This document shows, one piece after another, positions 1 to 64,000 of a stretch of DNA of 64,000 nucleotides. Source of the DNA: Pseudomonas phage vB_PaeM_GXNNA8. A model generated the notes under the pieces. It did not search any database, was not told where the DNA came from, and saw nothing but the letters and a program-made list of their open reading frames with translations. The position numbers and the translations under genes are program-made. The DNA lies in the sequence record PV400810.1; one strand, given 5' to 3'. The stretch's first letter is position 1. Every line of letters starts with the position of its first letter.

Positions 1-522
1 GTAAGCGTGGTTGATGTTTTGTCTACTTGTACACCATTCAAGGTTATCCAAAGCCCAATTCTGTTTGTTACCATCCTTGTGATTGACTTCCAGATCCTTG
101 GGATGATACCCCTGTTTAAGGAGTTCTTCCGGTACTGGAATGAATGTACAGGCGAGCGCTCTATGAAGTCCTACGGTGTTATTCTTGCCTTGTACGGCAA
201 TAAAGGCGTTGGTGTAACCGCCTGGGTGGAAACTGGTAGGAATCTCTCGGTATTCCTTTTCAGGGTTATTGCAGGAGAGGATCTTACCTTTATTGCTAAT
301 CAGGAGGTAATGGAGTTTGATTTCCTTAAGGGCATTCTCATCCTTGACTCGTTTGTCTTGCTTACGGTAGTAGAGGGGAATGAAAACTTCGTAAGTAGGA
401 TCTTCTCGAAGTTTCTTATCCAGAGCTGTTTTAAGGAGGGGGAGGTTGTACGGGAAGGGATGTTGTTGGTAGGTGCTCAGTTCCTCGGGGGTAAAGAGGT
501 CGGTAAGGGTGTTAATCGTCAT
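1..522 (-). CDS. HNH homing endonuclease (partial, C-terminus beyond window start)
   Basis: Minus-strand ATG at 522..520 with an AAGGAA RBS about 9 nt upstream. The frame stays open to position 1 and reads ...GYHPKDLEVNHKDGNKQNWALDNLEWCTSRQNINHAY, a classic HNH (His-Asn-His) nuclease motif. It is missing from the ORF track because it has no in-window stop. The plus-strand ORF 7..525 is its antisense artefact. Confidence 0.6.
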   Translation of the reverse strand, partial: MTINTLTDLFTPEELSTYQQHPFPYNLPLLKTALDKKLREDPTYEVFIPLYYRKQDKRVKDENALKEIKLHYLLISNKGKILSCNNPEKEYREIPTSFHPGGYTNAFIAVQGKNNTVGLHRALACTFIPVPEELLKQGYHPKDLEVNHKDGNKQNWALDNLEWCTSRQNINHAY

Positions 523-680
523 TAGAAAGGTTCCTTATGGAAAGGTAATAGGGTAATACCCTCTTTAAAGGGTCTATTAACGCGTATAAGCGTTAAACAG
601 AGGTAAGGTAACACTACCCTAGGGTTTTATTAAAAACCTCTTAGACTTGGAGGTGGCATTGAAATAAATAAATAAACGAC

Positions 681-28005: not shown

Positions 28006-28968
28006 TTACAGCATGAAGCCCAGATCGTTCGATCCTTCCGAAATGTCCTTCTGTTGAGAGAAGTCAACGGCAGCTTGAGCTTGAACCGTTTCCAACCCTT
28101 CGATCTCTTTCTCCAGTTCTTCCAGGGCTTCACCGTGATCGAGGGTCACGTGCAGCTCTTTGATGTCCTCCGGACGATCACTGTTGGGGGAGAAGATACC
28201 CGTCGTCCGGTAAACCGATCCCATAAACCGAGGAACCACGTCATCGTTGTTCGGGTACAGGCTGGCGACCGAGACCGGTACCTTACCGGTATAGTCCGCT
28301 GCACCATCCTGGTCGTAGAAATGAATACGACTCAACGCCGGCCTGGTTTTACCCCCCGCCGAGTAATTGAAGAAGCGTTTAATGTCTTCCTCATCGATTT
28401 CCGTATTACCGGGATCAAAGAGGAGACTCAGGAGATTCAGTGAATCAATCGCCTGAAGGTTGACTTCCTTACGGGTCAGGTTCGGCGTATTGAGGAACTC
28501 CATGTAGCACACCGGACGGTTCAGCTGATTGGGTTGGCACTGGTTAGCAAAGGAACGGAGGGCATTGACTGCGTTTTCTTTATCCACCAGGGAGGTGTGT
28601 TCCGAGATCAGGCAGAGAATGACGTTCTTACCCGACTCGACCAGCAGGCGCAACGCAATCATCGCCATAACACGCCCAGTACCACCAGCGGTACTGGCTA
28701 CGATGATGTTGTGAACACCGGGACGGTGTTTCTTCAGGTTAGCGGCTACGAAGGGGAGGAGTTTATCGTAGTGCTTGGTGGAATCCTTACCACTCCCGTT
28801 CACCCCTTCGAGTTGCTCAATGGGGAACGCCGCCGTGAAGTTCTTATCACTGGTATCGAAGCCTACCATCCCCGCATCACTGTTCACACGCGTACGGGAA
28901 TATTCTTTCAAACCCGCACCAATGTTGATACCCGCACCGCCCATGAGGTAGTATTGAATCTGAGACAT
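28006..28968 (-). CDS. phuZ: PhuZ-like phage tubulin
   Basis: The N-terminal MSQIQYYLMGGAGINIGAGL is a tubulin/FtsZ G-box. IIVASTAGGTGRV matches the tubulin [SAG]GGTG signature. The acidic C-terminal tail ...SEGSNDLGFML is present, and the length of about 320 aa is PhuZ-like. The track start 29067 is TTG; the ATG at 28968 is preceded by AAAGAGAG. Confidence 0.7.
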   Translation of the reverse strand: MSQIQYYLMGGAGINIGAGLKEYSRTRVNSDAGMVGFDTSDKNFTAAFPIEQLEGVNGSGKDSTKHYDKLLPFVAANLKKHRPGVHNIIVASTAGGTGRVMAMIALRLLVESGKNVILCLISEHTSLVDKENAVNALRSFANQCQPNQLNRPVCYMEFLNTPNLTRKEVNLQAIDSLNLLSLLFDPGNTEIDEEDIKRFFNYSAGGKTRPALSRIHFYDQDGAADYTGKVPVSVASLYPNNDDVVPRFMGSVYRTTGIFSPNSDRPEDIKELHVTLDHGEALEELEKEIEGLETVQAQAAVDFSQQKDISEGSNDLGFML

Positions 28969-29065
28969 ATCGAATCGCTCTCTTTGGTTTACAGGGAAGT
29001 CATTAAAAAGGACTATTCTCCAATAGCCTGCTAATAATTTAGGTTTCAAATTATCTAGCGTAATC

Positions 29066-29121
29066 AAAAAAAAAAGACTAACGGGTGGGTAACCGCCGAT
29101 ATAACCATAACACCACCCGTT
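29066..29121 (-). terminator. hairpin plus U10 tract (terminator of the HslV-like gene transcript / 3' end of structured element)
   Basis: AACGGGTGG...CCACCCGTT 9-bp stem with a 24-nt loop, followed on the minus strand by AGUCUUUUUUUUUU. Confidence 0.45.
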
Positions 29122-29476
29122 AGCGCATCCAAGAGGATCAATAACGTTGTACCCTTACAGTGACCTAGAGAACCATGGCGTGGAAACAGGTCACTTTAAC
29201 GGTATAAGATATTCCCTCCTGGGTAAATAAAAAACAAAAGAAGTAAGACCTCCAGCTCTACATCATAGTGACATAGAGCTGGAGGGGCGGAGCGTTTTGT
29301 AGGCAACCCTCTCAAGCCTGACAGAATAGGCTTGGGCAGTTGAGGGGTGGTGGGTGTCTAACACTCCTAACCTTCCCACCAGGACCGGCGATGGAGTGAA
29401 TGCAGGTCATCGGCATAAAATACCTGCACACTGTGGTTTCCATCGCCTACATTCTGAGTGTCTTACCCCCTAGGGA

Positions 29477-30025
29477 TTATTTTTCTGCCTTATCAGCGAC
29501 CGGTTCAGGGCGCTTACTGGGGGTTGCTGGAATAGAAGGGAGTTCCCAGGTCTCAATACGACCACCGGAATAGACATCCAGCTTACAGGCCGCTTTAACT
29601 GCATCCACCGCGCTTTTACCAACCGCCATCACCGCACTGGCGTAAACGCTCCCTGATCCAATCGCAAACGGGGGTTGTACGCCCGACACCGTGAAAGCCA
29701 TACTCCCGTCTCGTTGTTTATATGCTGAAACCATCCAAACATTACCCTGTTCACCCACACAGAGCAGATTCGAATCCCCAACGAGGTGGTCGGGTGCTTT
29801 GGTCTTAAAGGTAACACCCTCACTCAACAGTTCTTTAAAGGCCAACAGATCCGTCAGACTCCCCGACAAACCAAAACAGATAATACGGTCACCGTTGACA
29901 CTCCAGTACTCTTCTTCCCCCGGTTCGTGGATTTTACGTTGCTCTCCGAGGTTGATCATATCGGCCCCGTTGACCACACGGGTATCCGCTGCCATTACAC
30001 CGTCACGATAAGCAATCGTTGTCAT
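29477..30025 (-). CDS. HslV/ClpQ-family Ntn-hydrolase peptidase
   Basis: From the ATG at 30025, [20 protein letters not shown] aligns to HslV [20 protein letters not shown] (Thr2 nucleophile). [21 protein letters not shown] aligns to HslV [34 protein letters not shown] aligns to GSGGPYAQAAARA. AGGAAG RBS; the track start 30055 is TTG. Confidence 0.7.
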   Translation of the reverse strand: [182 protein letters not shown]

Positions 30026-30224
30026 TACACACTCTTCCTCTTCTGGGTTTAACAAAACATATCAATACGAATAACCGTATTCTTTCATTACCCAATGATA
30101 ATGTAGAACTGAAATCCATTAACCTTAATTGCAATATTGCAGTATAAACCCTATACGCCGGCTTCCCTGTTCGGGAATGCCGGTCGGGGTAATTAACTTT
30201 GAAAGGGGTACTTCTTTAAGAGTA

Positions 30225-30350
30225 AATGAAATTTAGGGAATATTTAAAAGGTATTTTTCCCATTTTCATTTCCTCTTCATTTTTCCTTTTTTAAATAAAA
30301 AAGTAATTTCCTATAATAATAATAAATAGTAAAGTTAAATTTTATTGCCT
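30225..30350. other. about 125-nt AT-rich tract (about 80% AT) inside a 620-nt ORF-free divergent intergenic region
   Basis: The local composition contrasts with the roughly 48% GC of the rest of the window. Contains TATAATAATAATAAATAG and runs of T/A. Followed by the hairpin ATAAGCCCC-TCCG-GGGGCTTAT at 30352..30372. Confidence 0.4.
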
Positions 30351-30625
30351 TATAAGCCCCTCCGGGGCTTATATAAAGAGCAAAAGCTATTACGGAGTAA
30401 TAGGTTTTTCCTTCGGATTTTCTCTTTTCTCTTCTCTGGACTCTACCTTCGGTAGGGCCTCCTCCCCCAAGATTCTTTACTCCTTCACTCCACTCGCCGT
30501 AGGCTCATGTCGCTCAGTCCTAAAGAATCTTACCCCCTCCTCCAAAATGAGAATTGAGTAAGTGGAACATATAATGGAAACCGAATAATGAATTACTGGA
30601 AGATGTTATGATTCCCTAATCCTAG

Positions 30626-58931: not shown

Positions 58932-61900
58932 TTATTTACCTCTGTAGAGTTTAATGGCTTGGCGAGTGATCTGGAAACCATACTCATTAGCAACCAGCTT
59001 GTTCCTCAAACTGAGTACCATTCGGTTAAACATCCCTTTAAAGCTCGACTTCACATCAATTACAATCCCACTGGCAGTCTTAAGCGGTCTTTCCATGATA
59101 CGACCCACAGTGGCTTTCATCTGGTTCCCAATGACATACTTATCCGCATTGGTACTCGGGTCTAACGACTCGATGTAGAACGTAATGAATGCCTTACCTG
59201 GACCTAACATGGGACGATTAAGATTGAACATCGTGGAAATGGCATTGTTCTCGACACCGGTTCCTTCCACCAACCCTTTCCGTTTCGTTTCCTTATCCTT
59301 CTGAACAATGAACGAACGGAACGAGTCAGACATCTTGTCTAAGGGAGAGTTGTACCGAACATCGATGTGTACGATCTTTCCATGATGCTTCGAACGGATC
59401 TGTTTGATACCGAGTTTGTTGATGTCTGCTTCGAGCTCAGGAAGCTCCTCGCCCTCCACCAAGTGAGGCTCTTCGATATCACATAAAATCGTGTCCTGTT
59501 CGACGTAATCTCCTACCTTAACCCGCATCACCAGGTTGTTTGACACGTCCTCGGCAAACCGACTGGGTTTAATGAATGGGGTACGTGCTTCCATGGCCAA
59601 TTCTTTCGAAATTGCAATAGAGTCCTCGTACACATCCTGGTCTTCCACCATAACGATCTGGCACATCTTACCCATCTTAACCCCGACCTGCCCTGGGCAG
59701 AAGGGGTCTCGACCGAACCAGTTTTCATCCCAGCCGATGACATCTCCCTTACGGAAGGTATCTCCGACCTTCAGATCCGTGGTACGGTTATGAGGATGGT
59801 ATTCCCCACTGGCTTCTCCAATCACCAACCCCAAGGGGTACGAGTCCGTTGTTCCATCCTTGTATTCGACGAGTAAGCGATCGTTCTCCACTTTAGTGAC
59901 CTTACCATCTTCAGCGGCTACTTTGCTGTAAAGATCGGAGGTCCGGTGGGCCAGTACGTTCTCGTAACCCGTTCTCAGGGTAACGATCTCGTAGTTCTTA
60001 GCCATCACTGCTTGAGAGGCCTGAGTCGATGTGAATACTGCTCGCTTCACATCGTCATGCGTTCCACCGTACATCAGGTTCATGGTAACCGAACCGTCAC
60101 CGGTAGGGGTACGTTTGTTCTTGGGATCAACATTGCCTCGGAAATCAGCGATACCCGGATCAGAGGTGGTGTAGGTCACATACCCCACTTTACCACTGTC
60201 CTTGTTGGCTTCACTGATGACCCCTTTGTAACTCTCCAGCTGAGTCCGTGCGCGTTTGACCATGGTGATTTCACTACGACCACCTGTTCCACCAAACGTC
60301 ACTTCCTCTTGGTCCTTCACTTGGTGAACCGGATTCACTTCTTCCACCAAGTTCGTAGACCGGTCAGTACCAATGGCAATAATAACCGCATCCGGGTTAA
60401 AGTCCAGTTTGTGTTTACGCCCTTTCCCTTTATTCCGGTATTGACGAATGGACTTTACAAATTCCGTGTAGAGATGACCTGCGAAGCGTTCATACCCTAC
60501 AATGCGCTGCTCTTCAATCTCCACCTCGTGCCGACTGTAATCCGTTTCCAATGCCTTAGCTGCATCAATCAGCAAGTAATGGAAGTCTTCAGACAGCTTC
60601 ATCTCTTTCAAAAGGTCTTTCGTAATGGGATCAATAAAGAGATCGAAGAGGTTCTTCATTTCCTGGAACTGAGATGGACGAACCCGAGGGTCTCCCATCA
60701 ACGCACTCCAGATACTGTTATTATTCAAATCACTCCGACTGAAGTTACTGATGTTGTTCAACTTCGGCATTCCACCAAAGATCAACGTGGTGAGCTTCTC
60801 CCGACGGTTAAAGATCAAGTATTCGTCATTGAACTGAATCGCGTATTCATCCTCCGTCAATTTAGGGCGAGTCCCTACGGGTACCGAACGCGTCGTGGCT
60901 TTAATCACCCGCAACAGTTCATCAATACCGAAGTAGAAGCACAGGACCACTCCCAACGGAAACGAATACCCGCTGATGTTAATCACCACGTGTTCCAAAG
61001 GCGCTTTACGAACATCAATACCGAGCAAGTCTTCAACAGTACCGAGTTCCTCTTCCCCTTTGTACAGGTTACCGTAATCATCAATGATCAAAGGTAATCC
61101 GTCCTTTACCCCAATCAAGAACCGATCAGGGCGGGTATAGGCTTTGAACTCAGGGTGGAGTTCCAGGAGATCCTTCAACCGGAAGTCCAATACCAACCCG
61201 TCGACAGTAATGTACTTGTACTGACGGGCCAGAATGCTGTAAATCCGAGGGGCTTTAAGGGAGCGATCCCAAGTACTGCCTTTAGTGACCGTATACCCTT
61301 TCCGTTTACTCTGGAGGGAGATTTGCTTCACCATGAACGTAGAGAGGTTATCCACCATCTTCGGACTACGACTCACCATGAGCTTACGGTCATAATAGCT
61401 CGACAGCACCACTTCCCGGGGACTGATCTTCCGGAAGGGTTTCTCCCGACGTTGCAGTTGCATGTGTTGCTTAACACCATCAATGACGTAGGTGCCGTCT
61501 TTCAGCACCGTAGGCAGCCGAGTATGTACAGTGACCTGATCACCATTGACTTCGTGCAACTGAATGCTGTGGACCTCGTAACTGCCTTCTACGCTGACGA
61601 CCTTCTCACGCCGGTAGTCGTTCATCGCAAAGCCAGCGTTCTGAAGACCCAACACCATTCGACCAATATCCCGGTGTAAAAACTTCTGAGGATATTCGAT
61701 CTTGAGGGATTTGGCACGACTCCGCAACATGCTCTCATCCAGTACGGGGAGAAACTCACCTTCAATCTCTCCACCCAGGTCTTTAACCTCTTCGGGTTTA
61801 ATCTGAATGAACTCTTCGAACGTTTGACCGTTCTCCATTTCAATGTGTTGATAACGGGTCGCTTTACGCATGAAGAAATCATGTTCAGCTACCGTCAGCG

Positions 61901-63251
61901 TACCTTCCTTAGCCCGCTCCTCTAACGCCCGCTTTACACCACTCTCAGGCGTCTTAAACACATTCTTGTTGGTATTGATCTCGGTTTGGACTTTCTCCAC
62001 CTCCAGCAGTTCATCATCTACCGGCGATGTCCACTCTTCAAGATTTGAATCAGCACCTCGTTCTCCCGCTGTGTCTTGCTCTTCGTCATGTGCCTCGCCA
62101 GGTCCTTCACTTCGGCTGAAAACATCAAGGATAGAACCAGCAGGACGATCAGCACGGGGAACCGTGCCCGAGCCAGTATGGTCTCGGGTTTCTGGAAGAT
62201 TGGATGTTTCTTCTTCTTCTTCTCGTGACGTTCCCGCAGCCACTTGGTCAACGGTACCTTTCTCTCCGGCAATTGGGATGACATTTTTCGTTTCCTCTTT
62301 AATGAGTACATTCTCAGGAACGCCTCCACGAGAAAGATTCATCAAAGCCAAATAGAAACGTTTAACCGCATTATGGCGGGTCAATGTCTTCAGACTTTCA
62401 AACTCTTTCCGAGCAGAGGGGTAGGTTTTCTCGTCTTTAGGATTTGTCTCATCTAACCAACCCTTCAACAGCCCCAGTTGTACTACAATGACTTTACTTT
62501 GAGACGTAAAGAGGATATGCAAATCCTTATACGCCTGGTCAGTGAGTTTACCGAACAAACTGAACGAATACTGGCCAAACAGGAACCCCAGTAGGTCCAA
62601 CAGCCAATAGCAGTTCTCAGCCTTCGTACTCTCCAGCATATTGCGCATCAGGACAGGATGGCCGTCCTTAAACCCATCAATAAACCGCCCGTAGTCTTTC
62701 TCAAGCTCAACCAGGGACGGTAGGTTCAACGGCAGGTCAATCCGCATATACTGCCGACGCACCCCTTTCTCGGCTTCTGCATTGATGTTCTCAATGAGCA
62801 GGTGCATCATGTTGTAGTATTTTTCATAATTCACGAAAATACTCGGACGGTAAACGAACCCCTGAGGAATCATCCCGTAGTTCTTAACGACTAGGACGTT
62901 CTCTTTGTTGTACACCGTGCTGATCTCACGCACCCAGCTGTACATGTAGTGACTCGCCCGGTACGCCTTAACCGCCTTAGGGTAGTCATAGGCGACTGTA
63001 CGCCCATGCCCCATCACCGGCTTATACCCGTCCCTTACAAACTCAATAAAGACCTCTTTAGGGAAGTTACTGATAAACGCTTCACTACTACCCGGTCCCT
63101 TTTCATTAACCGTCTTCGGTACGAAGTGCAGTAAACTCCCCTTAGGAAGGATCACTTCACCAATACCCAGGACTTTAGGGTTTACAACGTCTTGTTTCTT
63201 ACGCAGCACAAAGTGCTTAAAGAACTCGGAATACGTAATTGGATTGCTCAT
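58932..63251 (-). CDS. multisubunit RNA polymerase beta-like subunit, N-terminal-to-central module (second RNAP set, likely virion RNAP)
   Basis: 1439 aa. TFGGTGGRSEITMV...SYKGVISEANKDSGKVGYV aligns to the beta fork-loop GPGGLTRE...HYGRVCPIETPEGPNIGLI. GGTHDDVKRAVFTS aligns to GTGMERAVAVDS. LKVGDTFRKGDVIG...YEDSIAISKE aligns to VKVGDVVEKGDIL...NGYNFEDSILVSE. It lacks the GDK..NGDKG region, which is present in the separate 768-aa module. Contains an acidic low-complexity insert (residues about 330-400). Confidence 0.65.
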   Translation of the reverse strand: MSNPITYSEFFKHFVLRKKQDVVNPKVLGIGEVILPKGSLLHFVPKTVNEKGPGSSEAFISNFPKEVFIEFVRDGYKPVMGHGRTVAYDYPKAVKAYRASHYMYSWVREISTVYNKENVLVVKNYGMIPQGFVYRPSIFVNYEKYYNMMHLLIENINAEAEKGVRRQYMRIDLPLNLPSLVELEKDYGRFIDGFKDGHPVLMRNMLESTKAENCYWLLDLLGFLFGQYSFSLFGKLTDQAYKDLHILFTSQSKVIVVQLGLLKGWLDETNPKDEKTYPSARKEFESLKTLTRHNAVKRFYLALMNLSRGGVPENVLIKEETKNVIPIAGEKGTVDQVAAGTSREEEEETSNLPETRDHTGSGTVPRADRPAGSILDVFSRSEGPGEAHDEEQDTAGERGADSNLEEWTSPVDDELLEVEKVQTEINTNKNVFKTPESGVKRALEERAKEGTLTVAEHDFFMRKATRYQHIEMENGQTFEEFIQIKPEEVKDLGGEIEGEFLPVLDESMLRSRAKSLKIEYPQKFLHRDIGRMVLGLQNAGFAMNDYRREKVVSVEGSYEVHSIQLHEVNGDQVTVHTRLPTVLKDGTYVIDGVKQHMQLQRREKPFRKISPREVVLSSYYDRKLMVSRSPKMVDNLSTFMVKQISLQSKRKGYTVTKGSTWDRSLKAPRIYSILARQYKYITVDGLVLDFRLKDLLELHPEFKAYTRPDRFLIGVKDGLPLIIDDYGNLYKGEEELGTVEDLLGIDVRKAPLEHVVINISGYSFPLGVVLCFYFGIDELLRVIKATTRSVPVGTRPKLTEDEYAIQFNDEYLIFNRREKLTTLIFGGMPKLNNISNFSRSDLNNNSIWSALMGDPRVRPSQFQEMKNLFDLFIDPITKDLLKEMKLSEDFHYLLIDAAKALETDYSRHEVEIEEQRIVGYERFAGHLYTEFVKSIRQYRNKGKGRKHKLDFNPDAVIIAIGTDRSTNLVEEVNPVHQVKDQEEVTFGGTGGRSEITMVKRARTQLESYKGVISEANKDSGKVGYVTYTTSDPGIADFRGNVDPKNKRTPTGDGSVTMNLMYGGTHDDVKRAVFTSTQASQAVMAKNYEIVTLRTGYENVLAHRTSDLYSKVAAEDGKVTKVENDRLLVEYKDGTTDSYPLGLVIGEASGEYHPHNRTTDLKVGDTFRKGDVIGWDENWFGRDPFCPGQVGVKMGKMCQIVMVEDQDVYEDSIAISKELAMEARTPFIKPSRFAEDVSNNLVMRVKVGDYVEQDTILCDIEEPHLVEGEELPELEADINKLGIKQIRSKHHGKIVHIDVRYNSPLDKMSDSFRSFIVQKDKETKRKGLVEGTGVENNAISTMFNLNRPMLGPGKAFITFYIESLDPSTNADKYVIGNQMKATVGRIMERPLKTASGIVIDVKSSFKGMFNRMVLSLRNKLVANEYGFQITRQAIKLYRGK

Positions 63252-63255
63252 ACCT

Positions 63256-63900
63256 CAATATCCTCTAAGCCGCTCGTCGCTGCTTTAAACATAAAGAGAA
63301 TCGGTTCATTGATCGGATCATACAAAAACCGACCTGTACCACTGATGTAATACTCCCGTTTCCCAAAGAGTTCGTAGGCCTGTTGTTTGCTGTCTTCCGC
63401 TACAACAGAATGGCTCGACAATTGGTCGCCCGCATTGGTCAGTCCATGCTAGGACCCGGCACGCTCAGGTGCCTGCCTGTCTATTAAACAGGGCCAGACT
63501 ATATCTTGACCGTAGGGAATAGGTTTATTCCCCCTTAGGTCTCCTCCACTTCCACCCCCTTCCTTGGTAGGTGTACAGGGTCATAACTCCCTTAGTCGTT
63601 GAACTTTACGCGTGGGGTCTAACACCCGGTAGCGTCTTAGCGGCTGATTGTCCCTTGTTTACGACCCTTAGCGTTATTGGTTAGCGTAGGTCAGGTCTGC
63701 TGTTCTTTCTACCTTTCGGTCGCATTCACGCTTACTGTTTCCAGTTACGTTGTAGCCAACAGACTTTTGTGAACTCCCAGCAATTCAGAGGAATACGGTC
63801 TAGGACTTTCGTGCCTAGCCGGACTAAGTGATGGATATAAACTCGTTAACGTGTGAGTTTCTTGAAACGATAACGGGAATGGAGCAACTTACCTTCTCGT
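63256..63900 (-). ncRNA. group I intron-like ribozyme (candidate self-splicing intron; boundaries approximate)
   Basis: 750 nt with no ORF of 60 aa or more on either strand. On the minus strand the R element UUCAACGACUAAGGG lies at about 63603..63590 and the S element AAGAUAUAGUC at 63506..63496, an 11/11 match to the group I P7 3' consensus. R/S pair GACUA:UAGUC in the correct order. A hairpin with loop AACC (P8-like) sits just before S, and a CCUGU...ACAGG (P9-like) hairpin just after. A GAAA-tetraloop hairpin lies upstream. Confidence 0.5.
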
Positions 63901-64000
63901 GCGCAAACGATAACGGTACGGGGATTGGCTCCGGTGATTCGGGTAACTGCATCAACGCCATACACAATCGACGTCTCCTGGGTTACCGAATCAAACATTT

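Follow-up and report, generated by a model that had tools for sequence, protein, structure and literature searches.

Here we describe an element at the end of a 64,000-nucleotide (nt) stretch of DNA from Pseudomonas phage vB_PaeM_GXNNA8 (record PV400810.1), a jumbo phage of the EL-like (Elvirus) group; the whole 64-kb stretch is referred to as the window. Comparison with related genomes indicates, with a probability that we put at about 0.92, that positions 64000..63431, read on the minus strand (-) like every part of the element, are the 3' third of a mobile group I intron of ~1.77 kb, which carries an open reading frame (ORF) for an HNH endonuclease and interrupts an RNA polymerase (RNAP) gene of the type of phage EL gp184. 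Pseudomonas phage EL and six other Elvirus genomes match the window over 64000..62000 (-) at 98-99% identity. The EL reference annotation gives, in this order, gp184 ('RNA polymerase beta subunit', 481 amino acids), gp185 ('HNH endonuclease', 423 amino acids), an unannotated gap of 595 nt and gp186 ('RNA polymerase beta subunit'). An initial annotation of the window, made from the sequence alone, had drawn attention to 63256..64000 as a stretch free of ORFs. It is correct that no ORF of 60 amino acids or more is called there, but the region is nonetheless partly coding: it holds the second exon of the polymerase gene at 63430..63248 and the C-terminus of the endonuclease at 64000..63846.

A group I ribozyme on the minus strand

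The region 63256..64000 contains a group I ribozyme on its minus strand, as the initial annotation had proposed. A covariance-model search finds the Rfam family RF00028 (Intron_gpI) at 63849..63477 (-), where the match extends over the full length of the model (positions 1-253 of 253) and scores 46.7 bits. The E-values, 1.5e-10 in a 1-kb search and 9.8e-9 in the whole 64-kb window, place the pattern far beyond chance, and by E-value thresholds RF00028 is the sole RNA family that matches in the window. With default settings, at the gathering threshold, Rfam reports no match in the window, because 46.7 bits is below the curated gathering score of this family, which is 50 bits. The EL reference allele of the ribozyme, which differs from the window allele by 16 substitutions, scores 51.1 bits, at or above that cut-off; the 16 differences lie in loops or preserve pairing, as at 63481 in P9, where U-A is exchanged for U.G.

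The S element, AAGATATAGTC, is present in the window as a single copy, at 63507..63497 (-), one base away from the position 63506..63496 at which it had first been placed. The R-like element that had been recognised upstream of it is likewise found once, as TTCAACGACTAAGGG at 63603..63589 (-); GTTCAACGACTA is also unique, and so is GTTCAACGACTAAGGG, located at 63604..63589 (-). About 0.03 and 0.01 chance matches are expected in 128 kb. The R element (63589..63604) consists of J6/7 and the 5' strand of P7, GACUA (63597..63593), and the S element AAGAUAUAGUC (63497..63507) consists of J8/7 and the 3' strand of P7, UAGUC (63501..63497). The two strands of P7 follow each other in the correct order, as had been noted before, with a separation of 96 nt, and both elements are invariant in the six introns compared here.

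These six introns were represented by their aligned post-ORF cores, from the window, EL, Klebsiella phage phiKp_32, Raoultella phage VB_ZK_P1, Shewanella phage FishSpeaker and Photobacterium phage PDCC-1. A structure built by hand from P2 to P9.2 (93 pairs), which includes P3, P4 and P6 pairings around the R and S elements, was scored on this alignment, with slid 3' partners and 500 shuffles as controls. Standard pairs occupy 84.6% of the cells, compared with 31-49% for slid 3' partners, both-sided changes are present in 42 of the 93 pairs, and none of the 500 shuffles reached the observed pairing or covariation score. The core is thus supported by covariation from P2 to P9.2, including the P3/P7 pseudoknot; P7 itself is invariant across the six introns and hence uninformative for covariation. 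An unsupervised RNAalifold consensus had P2 and P7 to P9.2 right, but mispaired P3/P4 and introduced spurious long-range pairs, and was replaced by the hand-built structure.

Taken from the 5' side, P2 (63800..63818) is the hairpin with a GAAA tetraloop that had already been noticed upstream; all of its cells (100%) are paired and four of its seven pairs show both-sided changes. The 5' strand of P3, UUCCUCUG (63786..63793), has its partner UGGAGGAG at 63548..63541 in the Rfam alignment, with 85% of cells paired. The P4-P5-P6 domain (63603..63781) comprises P6, P6a and P6b and a large extension of P5 that carries three hairpins capped by GAAA, and P5 covaries between GUUC/GGAC, GCUC/GGGC and GACC/GGUC. 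Between P7 and the 3' strand of P3 the hand structure places two hairpins, P7.1 and P7.2 (63553..63591), of which P7.1 (63591..63578) is the weaker, with 64% of cells paired; P7.2 (63573..63553) is paired in 95.8% of cells and has two pairs changed on both sides. P8 (63509..63540), present in both the Rfam alignment and the hand structure, stands directly before S, and P9 (63492..63476, CCUGU-N7-ACAGG), P9.1 (63473..63458) and P9.2 (63456..63441) follow it within 63441..63492, with 77-93% of cells paired and three to four pairs changed on both sides in each. The hairpins on either side of S had been described as P8-like and P9-like, and these are the identities that they take in the full structure. 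From its predicted fold, with P7.1 and P7.2 between P7 and the 3' strand of P3, the intron is classed as subgroup IA; this pair of hairpins is the hallmark of subgroup IA, which is the usual type in phages.

The interrupted gene and the splice sites

The initial annotation placed the intron simply upstream of the gene for a beta-like RNAP subunit of 1439 amino acids. Homology instead points to an interruption of the preceding gene, the counterpart of EL gp184, whose last 60 codons (GDQLSSHSVV...SGLEDIEV) and stop codon make up a second exon at 63248..63430 (-). Translated from 63430 to the stop at 63250..63248, this exon reads GDQLSSHSVVAEDSKQQAYELFGKREYYISGTGRFLYDPINEPILFMFKAATSGLEDIEV*; its stop codon overlaps the start of the 1439-amino-acid gene (ATGA), and it has neither a start codon nor a ribosome-binding site of its own. 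EL gp184 ends in ...EALLDSDHD, followed by UAG. When the exons are joined, DSDHD|GDQLSSH is restored within the sequence LLDSDHDGDQLSSH, and this we take to be the phage version of the metal-binding loop NADFDGDQM in the largest RNAP subunit of E. coli. By this comparison the insertion falls between the DHD and GDQ codons of the metal-binding DxDGD motif of the EL gp184 gene, and the tryptic peptide that spans the junction of the spliced subunit would be EALLDSDHDGDQLSSHSVVAEDSK.

The joined arrangement is the one encoded by relatives of EL. In a tblastn search a 103-amino-acid peptide across the joined junction is found in a single piece in the Erwinia phages RisingSun and Joad, at 66-67% identity, and also in Vibrio, Klebsiella, Aeromonas and other jumbo phages, including Aphrodite1. 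At least 54 jumbo-phage records have it without interruption; only in EL-type phages does it fall into two pieces (residues 1-43 and 44-103). The joined protein of 541 amino acids aligns with RisingSun gp229 (538 amino acids) from end to end, at 59% identity and with no gap at the junction, and the protein sequence of exon 2 is 100% conserved among seven isolates. The host gene is assigned to a beta'-like subunit from the DxDGD motif, from its homologues, which databases annotate as 'virion-associated RNA polymerase beta' subunit', and from the literature (PMC7598289); the motif lies near the C-terminal end of the subunit, which stops 60 amino acids further on, consistent with a split site that follows the double-psi beta-barrel domain.

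Exon 2 is absent from the public annotations of EL-type genomes or appears there in part, as a 'hypothetical protein' (6571..6753 in L001, the EL reference; 6636..6737 in L002). These annotations label the beta'-like gene 'beta subunit' and leave the intron unmarked, and in all public genomes of this type the coding sequence of the catalytic subunit stops at ...DSDHD. The main value of the present analysis is to correct this annotation of the catalytic subunit in EL-type genomes, as the spliced product of 541 amino acids is what would be needed for modelling the EL virion RNA polymerase, for proteomics or for the design of knock-outs.

The same region could in principle be read as a free-standing HNH gene with, after it, a structured RNA that serves the 1439-amino-acid gene as leader or regulator, with no splicing at all. 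HNH genes that stand alone are frequent in these phages, one probably being present at the other edge of the window, and the structured RNA does lie directly upstream of a large gene. We nevertheless consider this highly improbable in view of the full-length match to the group I model, of the frame restoration across 1.77 kb, which exactly rebuilds a universally conserved motif, and of the ORF-less intron that occupies the identical site in phiKp_32.

For the intron in the gp184-type gene, both ends can be placed. In the EL reference the whole intron corresponds to L001 4799..6570, or 1772 nt, of which the last 570 nt (63431..64000, -) lie inside the window, as delimited by the Rfam match, by mapping to EL and by the junction in intron-less homologues. 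Only one junction, ...CAU GAU | intron | GGC GAC..., gives DHD|GDQ as found in these homologues, and the expected spliced junction at the RNA level is GACCAUGAU|GGCGACCAA. With this junction U is the last base of the 5' exon and G that of the intron; this terminal G (omega-G) is 63431 (-), in the 3' splice site ...AAUGCG|GGCGAC. Group I splicing requires a 5' exon that ends in U and an intron that ends in G.

The 5' splice site, the 5' strand of P1 and most of the HNH ORF were taken from the seven genomes that are 98-99% identical to the window. The 5' strand of P1, which was read from the EL reference (L001 4796-4824), has the sequence segment UAGAUAGUGAUGCAUGAUAUAAACUC in the EL-type intron. 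Its predicted partner, identified with RNAduplex, is an extended P1 3' strand at 63819..63844 (-), which starts one base after the HNH stop codon. Within this strand GAGUUUAUAUC (63844..63834) pairs with intron nt 16-26, GAUAUAAACUC, and CAUCACU (63833..63827) pairs with intron nt 6-12, AGUGAUG. The splice-site helix is formed by UAGUC (63826..63822) with exon GAU and intron UA, such that the exon-terminal U of ...CAUGAU| stands opposite G63824 as a U.G wobble and the bases GUC at 63824..63822 make the pairs U.G, A-U and G-C; beyond it, GG (63820..63819) pairs with exon CC. The RNAduplex energy of the long-range duplex is -25.5 kcal/mol, compared with -18.3 for the next best partner in the 1.77-kb intron, and was reached by 2 of 1000 shuffles. 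The extension amounts to a long-range pairing of 18 bp, closing a loop of ~1.33 kb that contains the HNH ORF, and analogous long-range duplexes at the 5' splice site are seen in the Raoultella, PDCC-1 and phiKZ introns. Rfam proposes a local P1, in which 63845..63819 is folded on itself with six non-canonical pairs, and the long-range P1 was preferred to it. A hand search of the first 100 nt of the intron for a guide sequence (GUCAUGG-like) found none there; the partner is located after the ORF.

The intron-encoded endonuclease and the proposed splicing

The truncated ORF at the edge of the window, MFDSVTQ...KKLTR*, had been regarded as a possible 5' exon or as the C-terminus of the host gene. 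Its translation matches the end of EL gp185, so that 63846..64000 (-) represents the last 51 codons and the UAA stop (63848..63846) of a gp185 homologue; the full EL protein of 423 amino acids contains a Pfam HNH_3 domain (E = 4.7e-11, residues 161-207). From this domain and from its position between the two strands of the extended P1, gp185 is classed as an HNH homing endonuclease encoded within the intron. The statement in the initial annotation that no endonuclease is encoded by the intron was false because the edge ORF is the C-terminus of this very protein. The gp185 ORF has its own start codon and a Shine-Dalgarno sequence, AAGGAG, the latter lying within a 9-bp hairpin.

These findings bear on the earlier picture of a compact, ORF-less intron of ~0.4-0.75 kb, with the MFDSV... 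ORF as its 5' exon and the 1439-amino-acid gene, or its frame, as its 3' exon. That picture had in its favour that the edge ORF and the MSNPITY start of the large gene are 747 nt apart and in the same frame, and that the Rfam match begins directly after the stop codon of the edge ORF. The agreement in frame is arithmetically true but irrelevant to the exons: the edge ORF is the end of an HNH_3 endonuclease that has a start codon and a Shine-Dalgarno sequence of its own, the start of the MSNPITY gene is in the same position in relatives that lack the intron (RisingSun gp230), and the restored exon lies in another frame and joins gp184. We give next to no credence to the compact version, and the extent of the intron is put at ~1.77 kb.

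From the features of the ribozyme and of its exons we infer that the pre-mRNA self-splices in a reaction initiated by guanosine. A late operon transcript would carry exon 1, the intron with gp185, exon 2 and the beta gene. The extended P1 would bring the GAU|U splice site to the core, with the site set by the U.G wobble, and in the standard two-step mechanism an exogenous guanosine bound at P7 would attack after the wobble-paired U. The freed exon would then attack after G63431, and ligation would give the 541-amino-acid subunit with an intact DxDGD motif. Ribosomes on unspliced RNA would stop at the UAG that is formed by the first three bases of the intron, and in the HNH mRNA the Shine-Dalgarno sequence may be sequestered in the 9-bp hairpin. 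By analogy with I-HmuI and PhiPA3 gp210, gp185 would nick or cut intron-less alleles near the DxDGD codons and thereby lead to homing; it may also interfere with co-infecting relatives, again by analogy with PhiPA3 gp210.

A number of observations weigh against this interpretation. The window allele of the ribozyme is 3.3 bits short of the Rfam gathering score. The 5' splice site (~1.2 kb beyond the edge), the 5' strand of P1 and most of the HNH ORF lie beyond window position 64000. The exon side of P1 is short, consisting of 3 bp and 2 bp across an internal loop, and by inspection no convincing complement to the 3' exon GGCGAC, which would form P10, is found beside the guide sequence; P10 is dispensable in many group I introns. 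The host protein matches no Pfam family at E <= 0.01 (both RNAP subunits were searched, neither with a match), and the joined protein has no match at E <= 1 in a sequence search of the PDB; the virion RNAP subunits of jumbo phages are highly divergent. Finally, a long-read transcriptome of phiKZ contained no spliced reads for the predicted introns of that phage under the conditions used (PMC10914365).

The score below the gathering value, the missing P10 and the phiKZ transcriptome would also be in keeping with a decayed relic, that is, a ribozyme that does not splice, with the polymerase subunit in separate pieces or as a pseudogene, and the PDCC-1 record discussed below shows that aberrant versions of the intron exist. 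Such decay is in our judgement improbable. Exon 2 is devoid of a start codon and ribosome-binding site, and the three catalytic Asp residues would end up on two separate chains if the RNA were not spliced. The core helices are all intact, the differences between the window and EL being in loops or, as at 63481, keeping the pair, and exon 2 is fully conserved at the protein level in the seven isolates. Moreover, phages of this group cannot do without their virion RNAP (PMC11620839).

Neighbouring genes and related introns

The beta-like virion RNAP subunit gene next to the intron (58932..63251, -; 1439 amino acids) is a homologue of EL gp186 + gp187 and of phiKZ gp178, and is not interrupted by the gp184/gp185 intron. 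No sigma-70-type promoter-like or intrinsic-terminator-like sites were found in 63100..64000, which is weak evidence in favour of the intron, as these phages use their own promoters. Within the beta-like gene, comparison with Elvirus genomes places an unoccupied insertion site for a second, ORF-less group I intron at 60050..60051 (-), in GAC GAU|GUG (...THDD|VKR). All seven database Elvirus genomes have an ORF-less group I intron of ~412 nt in this gene (L001 9954..10365; 40.5 Rfam bits), which splits EL gp186|gp187 after ...GGTHDD|VKRAVF; the window allele is uninterrupted, as a single ORF of 1439 amino acids. The two codons that follow the site show synonymous differences, being GTG AAG in the window and GTC AAA in EL, and the type of site, after two conserved Asp residues, matches the published site of the PhiPA3 gp210 intron. 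At the other edge of the window, positions 1..634 are an insertion relative to EL, between gp043 and gp044, that is common only to phage IR-QUMS-PaBa1, in which the matching coding sequence (L013 3711..4688) carries a Pfam HNH_3 domain. The partial HNH gene that the initial annotation had reported at this edge agrees with that match, and 1..634 is probably part of a free-standing HNH endonuclease gene that is variably present among Elvirus isolates.

The order beta'-N gene, HNH ORF, Intron_gpI match and beta gene recurs in phiKZ (gp180/gp179/gp178), FishSpeaker, PDCC-1 and the Raoultella phage, in which Intron_gpI scores 92.2, 53.9, 38.7 and 34.5 bits, respectively. The insertion points in the beta' gene differ by steps of 6 nt, giving three sites within 12 nt: D|xDGD in phiKZ and Vibrio phage 2 TSL-2019, DxD|GD in EL and phiKp_32, and DGD|Q in the Raoultella phage and FishSpeaker. 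PDCC-1 (L008 2329..4046) and 2 TSL-2019 (L014) are 100% identical over ~1.36 kb, comprising the intron's 5' end, the HNH ORF, the 3' strand of P1 and P2, whereas their exons are ~90% identical and their ribozyme cores beyond P2 ~60%. The intron of 2 TSL-2019 splices GGD|YDGDQLN. In PDCC-1 that 5' splice site is joined to a core and a 3' splice site from an intron of the DGD|QLN type, and because of this combination 12 nt, which code for YDGD in the catalytic motif, are missing from the record. The PDCC-1 intron is either chimeric, and possibly lethal, or a collapsed assembly of two tandem introns.

It is tempting, although speculative and on balance rather unlikely, to regard the DxDGD codons in the beta' gene of the chimallivirus virion RNAP as a contested homing hot-spot, at which introns with exchangeable HNH/P1/P2 modules each spread and destroy the targets of their neighbours. 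If this were so, EL gp185 would serve as a weapon of interference with co-infecting Pseudomonas jumbo phages, the phiKZ intron, at a distance of 6 nt, would provide immunity, and the chimeric PDCC-1 intron would be the footprint of such a collision.

The intron of Klebsiella phage phiKp_32 has the same insertion point as the EL element, GAU|GGC GAC, a core family that can be aligned from P2 to P9.2 and a similar plan of P1, with 5 bp at the splice site, a bulge and a 7-bp extension. Unlike the EL element it is 380 nt long and ORF-less, with a P1 loop of 3 nt as against the 1.33-kb loop with the HNH ORF, and for its P1 RNAfold prefers an alternative exon pairing, GGGGAC/GUCCC. A second phiKp_32 intron of the same sequence family lies in another gene (L010 1102..2840; record 28759..30497), where an HNH/NUMOD1 ORF is followed by a gap of 365 nt, in which the P2-P3 region is 86% identical to window 63826..63760. 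A stretch of Vibrio phage VP4B (20169..20233) is 91% identical.

The classical phage IA2 introns with endonuclease ORFs are those of T4 td, nrdB and sunY and the DNA polymerase intron of SPO1/SP82, which encodes the nicking HNH enzyme I-HmuI. The EL element shares with them a group I core that has P7.1/P7.2, a stop codon immediately downstream of the 5' splice site, an ORF in a peripheral loop and an insertion at the active site of an essential enzyme. In the classical introns the ORF is in P6, P8 or P9 and the host is a gene of DNA or nucleotide metabolism, whereas the EL element has its ORF in the P1 loop and a multisubunit RNAP gene as its host.

The gp180/gp179 element of phiKZ resembles the EL element in its host gene, in the gene order tail fiber(-), beta'-N, HNH, ribozyme, beta, in the Intron_gpI match directly after the HNH ORF and in the long-range duplex between the 5' splice site and a segment after the ORF. 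It differs in that the insertion is 6 nt upstream (GAD|FDGD versus DHD|GDQ), the HNH proteins are 26% identical over 67% of their length, and the ribozyme core belongs to a different sequence subfamily. Both gp72 and gp179 of phiKZ have been called intron-encoded homing endonucleases in RNAP operons (PMC12676376; PMC11512511, citing Mesyanzhinov 2002, Ceyssens 2014). The element described here belongs to this published class and is ordinary for the phage group, its orthologue in the type phage, phiKZ, having been described before. The abstract of Hertveldt's 2005 account of the EL genome reportedly speaks of H-N-H and LAGLIDADG endonucleases associated with group I intron and intein sequences. 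A passage of a 2026 review cites the EL genome paper for jumbo-phage introns (Hertveldt 2005).

The intron endonuclease gp210 of PhiPA3 has been found by experiment to nick the virion RNAP gene of phiKZ and to mediate competition (Birkholz et al. 2024, Science; PMC11620839). Its intron, in gp211/209, is like that of EL a group I intron with an HNH ORF at catalytic or conserved Asp codons of a virion RNAP gene. Unlike the gp185 intron it sits in the gene for the other subunit, the homologue of the 1439-amino-acid ORF, and a site of this PhiPA3 type is occupied by an ORF-less intron in EL-type phages and empty in the window. Characterised by experiment, gp210 serves as the model for the probable action of gp185 in nicking the intron-less allele, homing and interference. 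The EL element would be one more homing-endonuclease intron exactly on the active-site codons of a jumbo-phage RNA polymerase; the principle that such an arrangement mediates competition between co-infecting phages is established for PhiPA3 and phiKZ, and the known picture is extended here but left unchanged.

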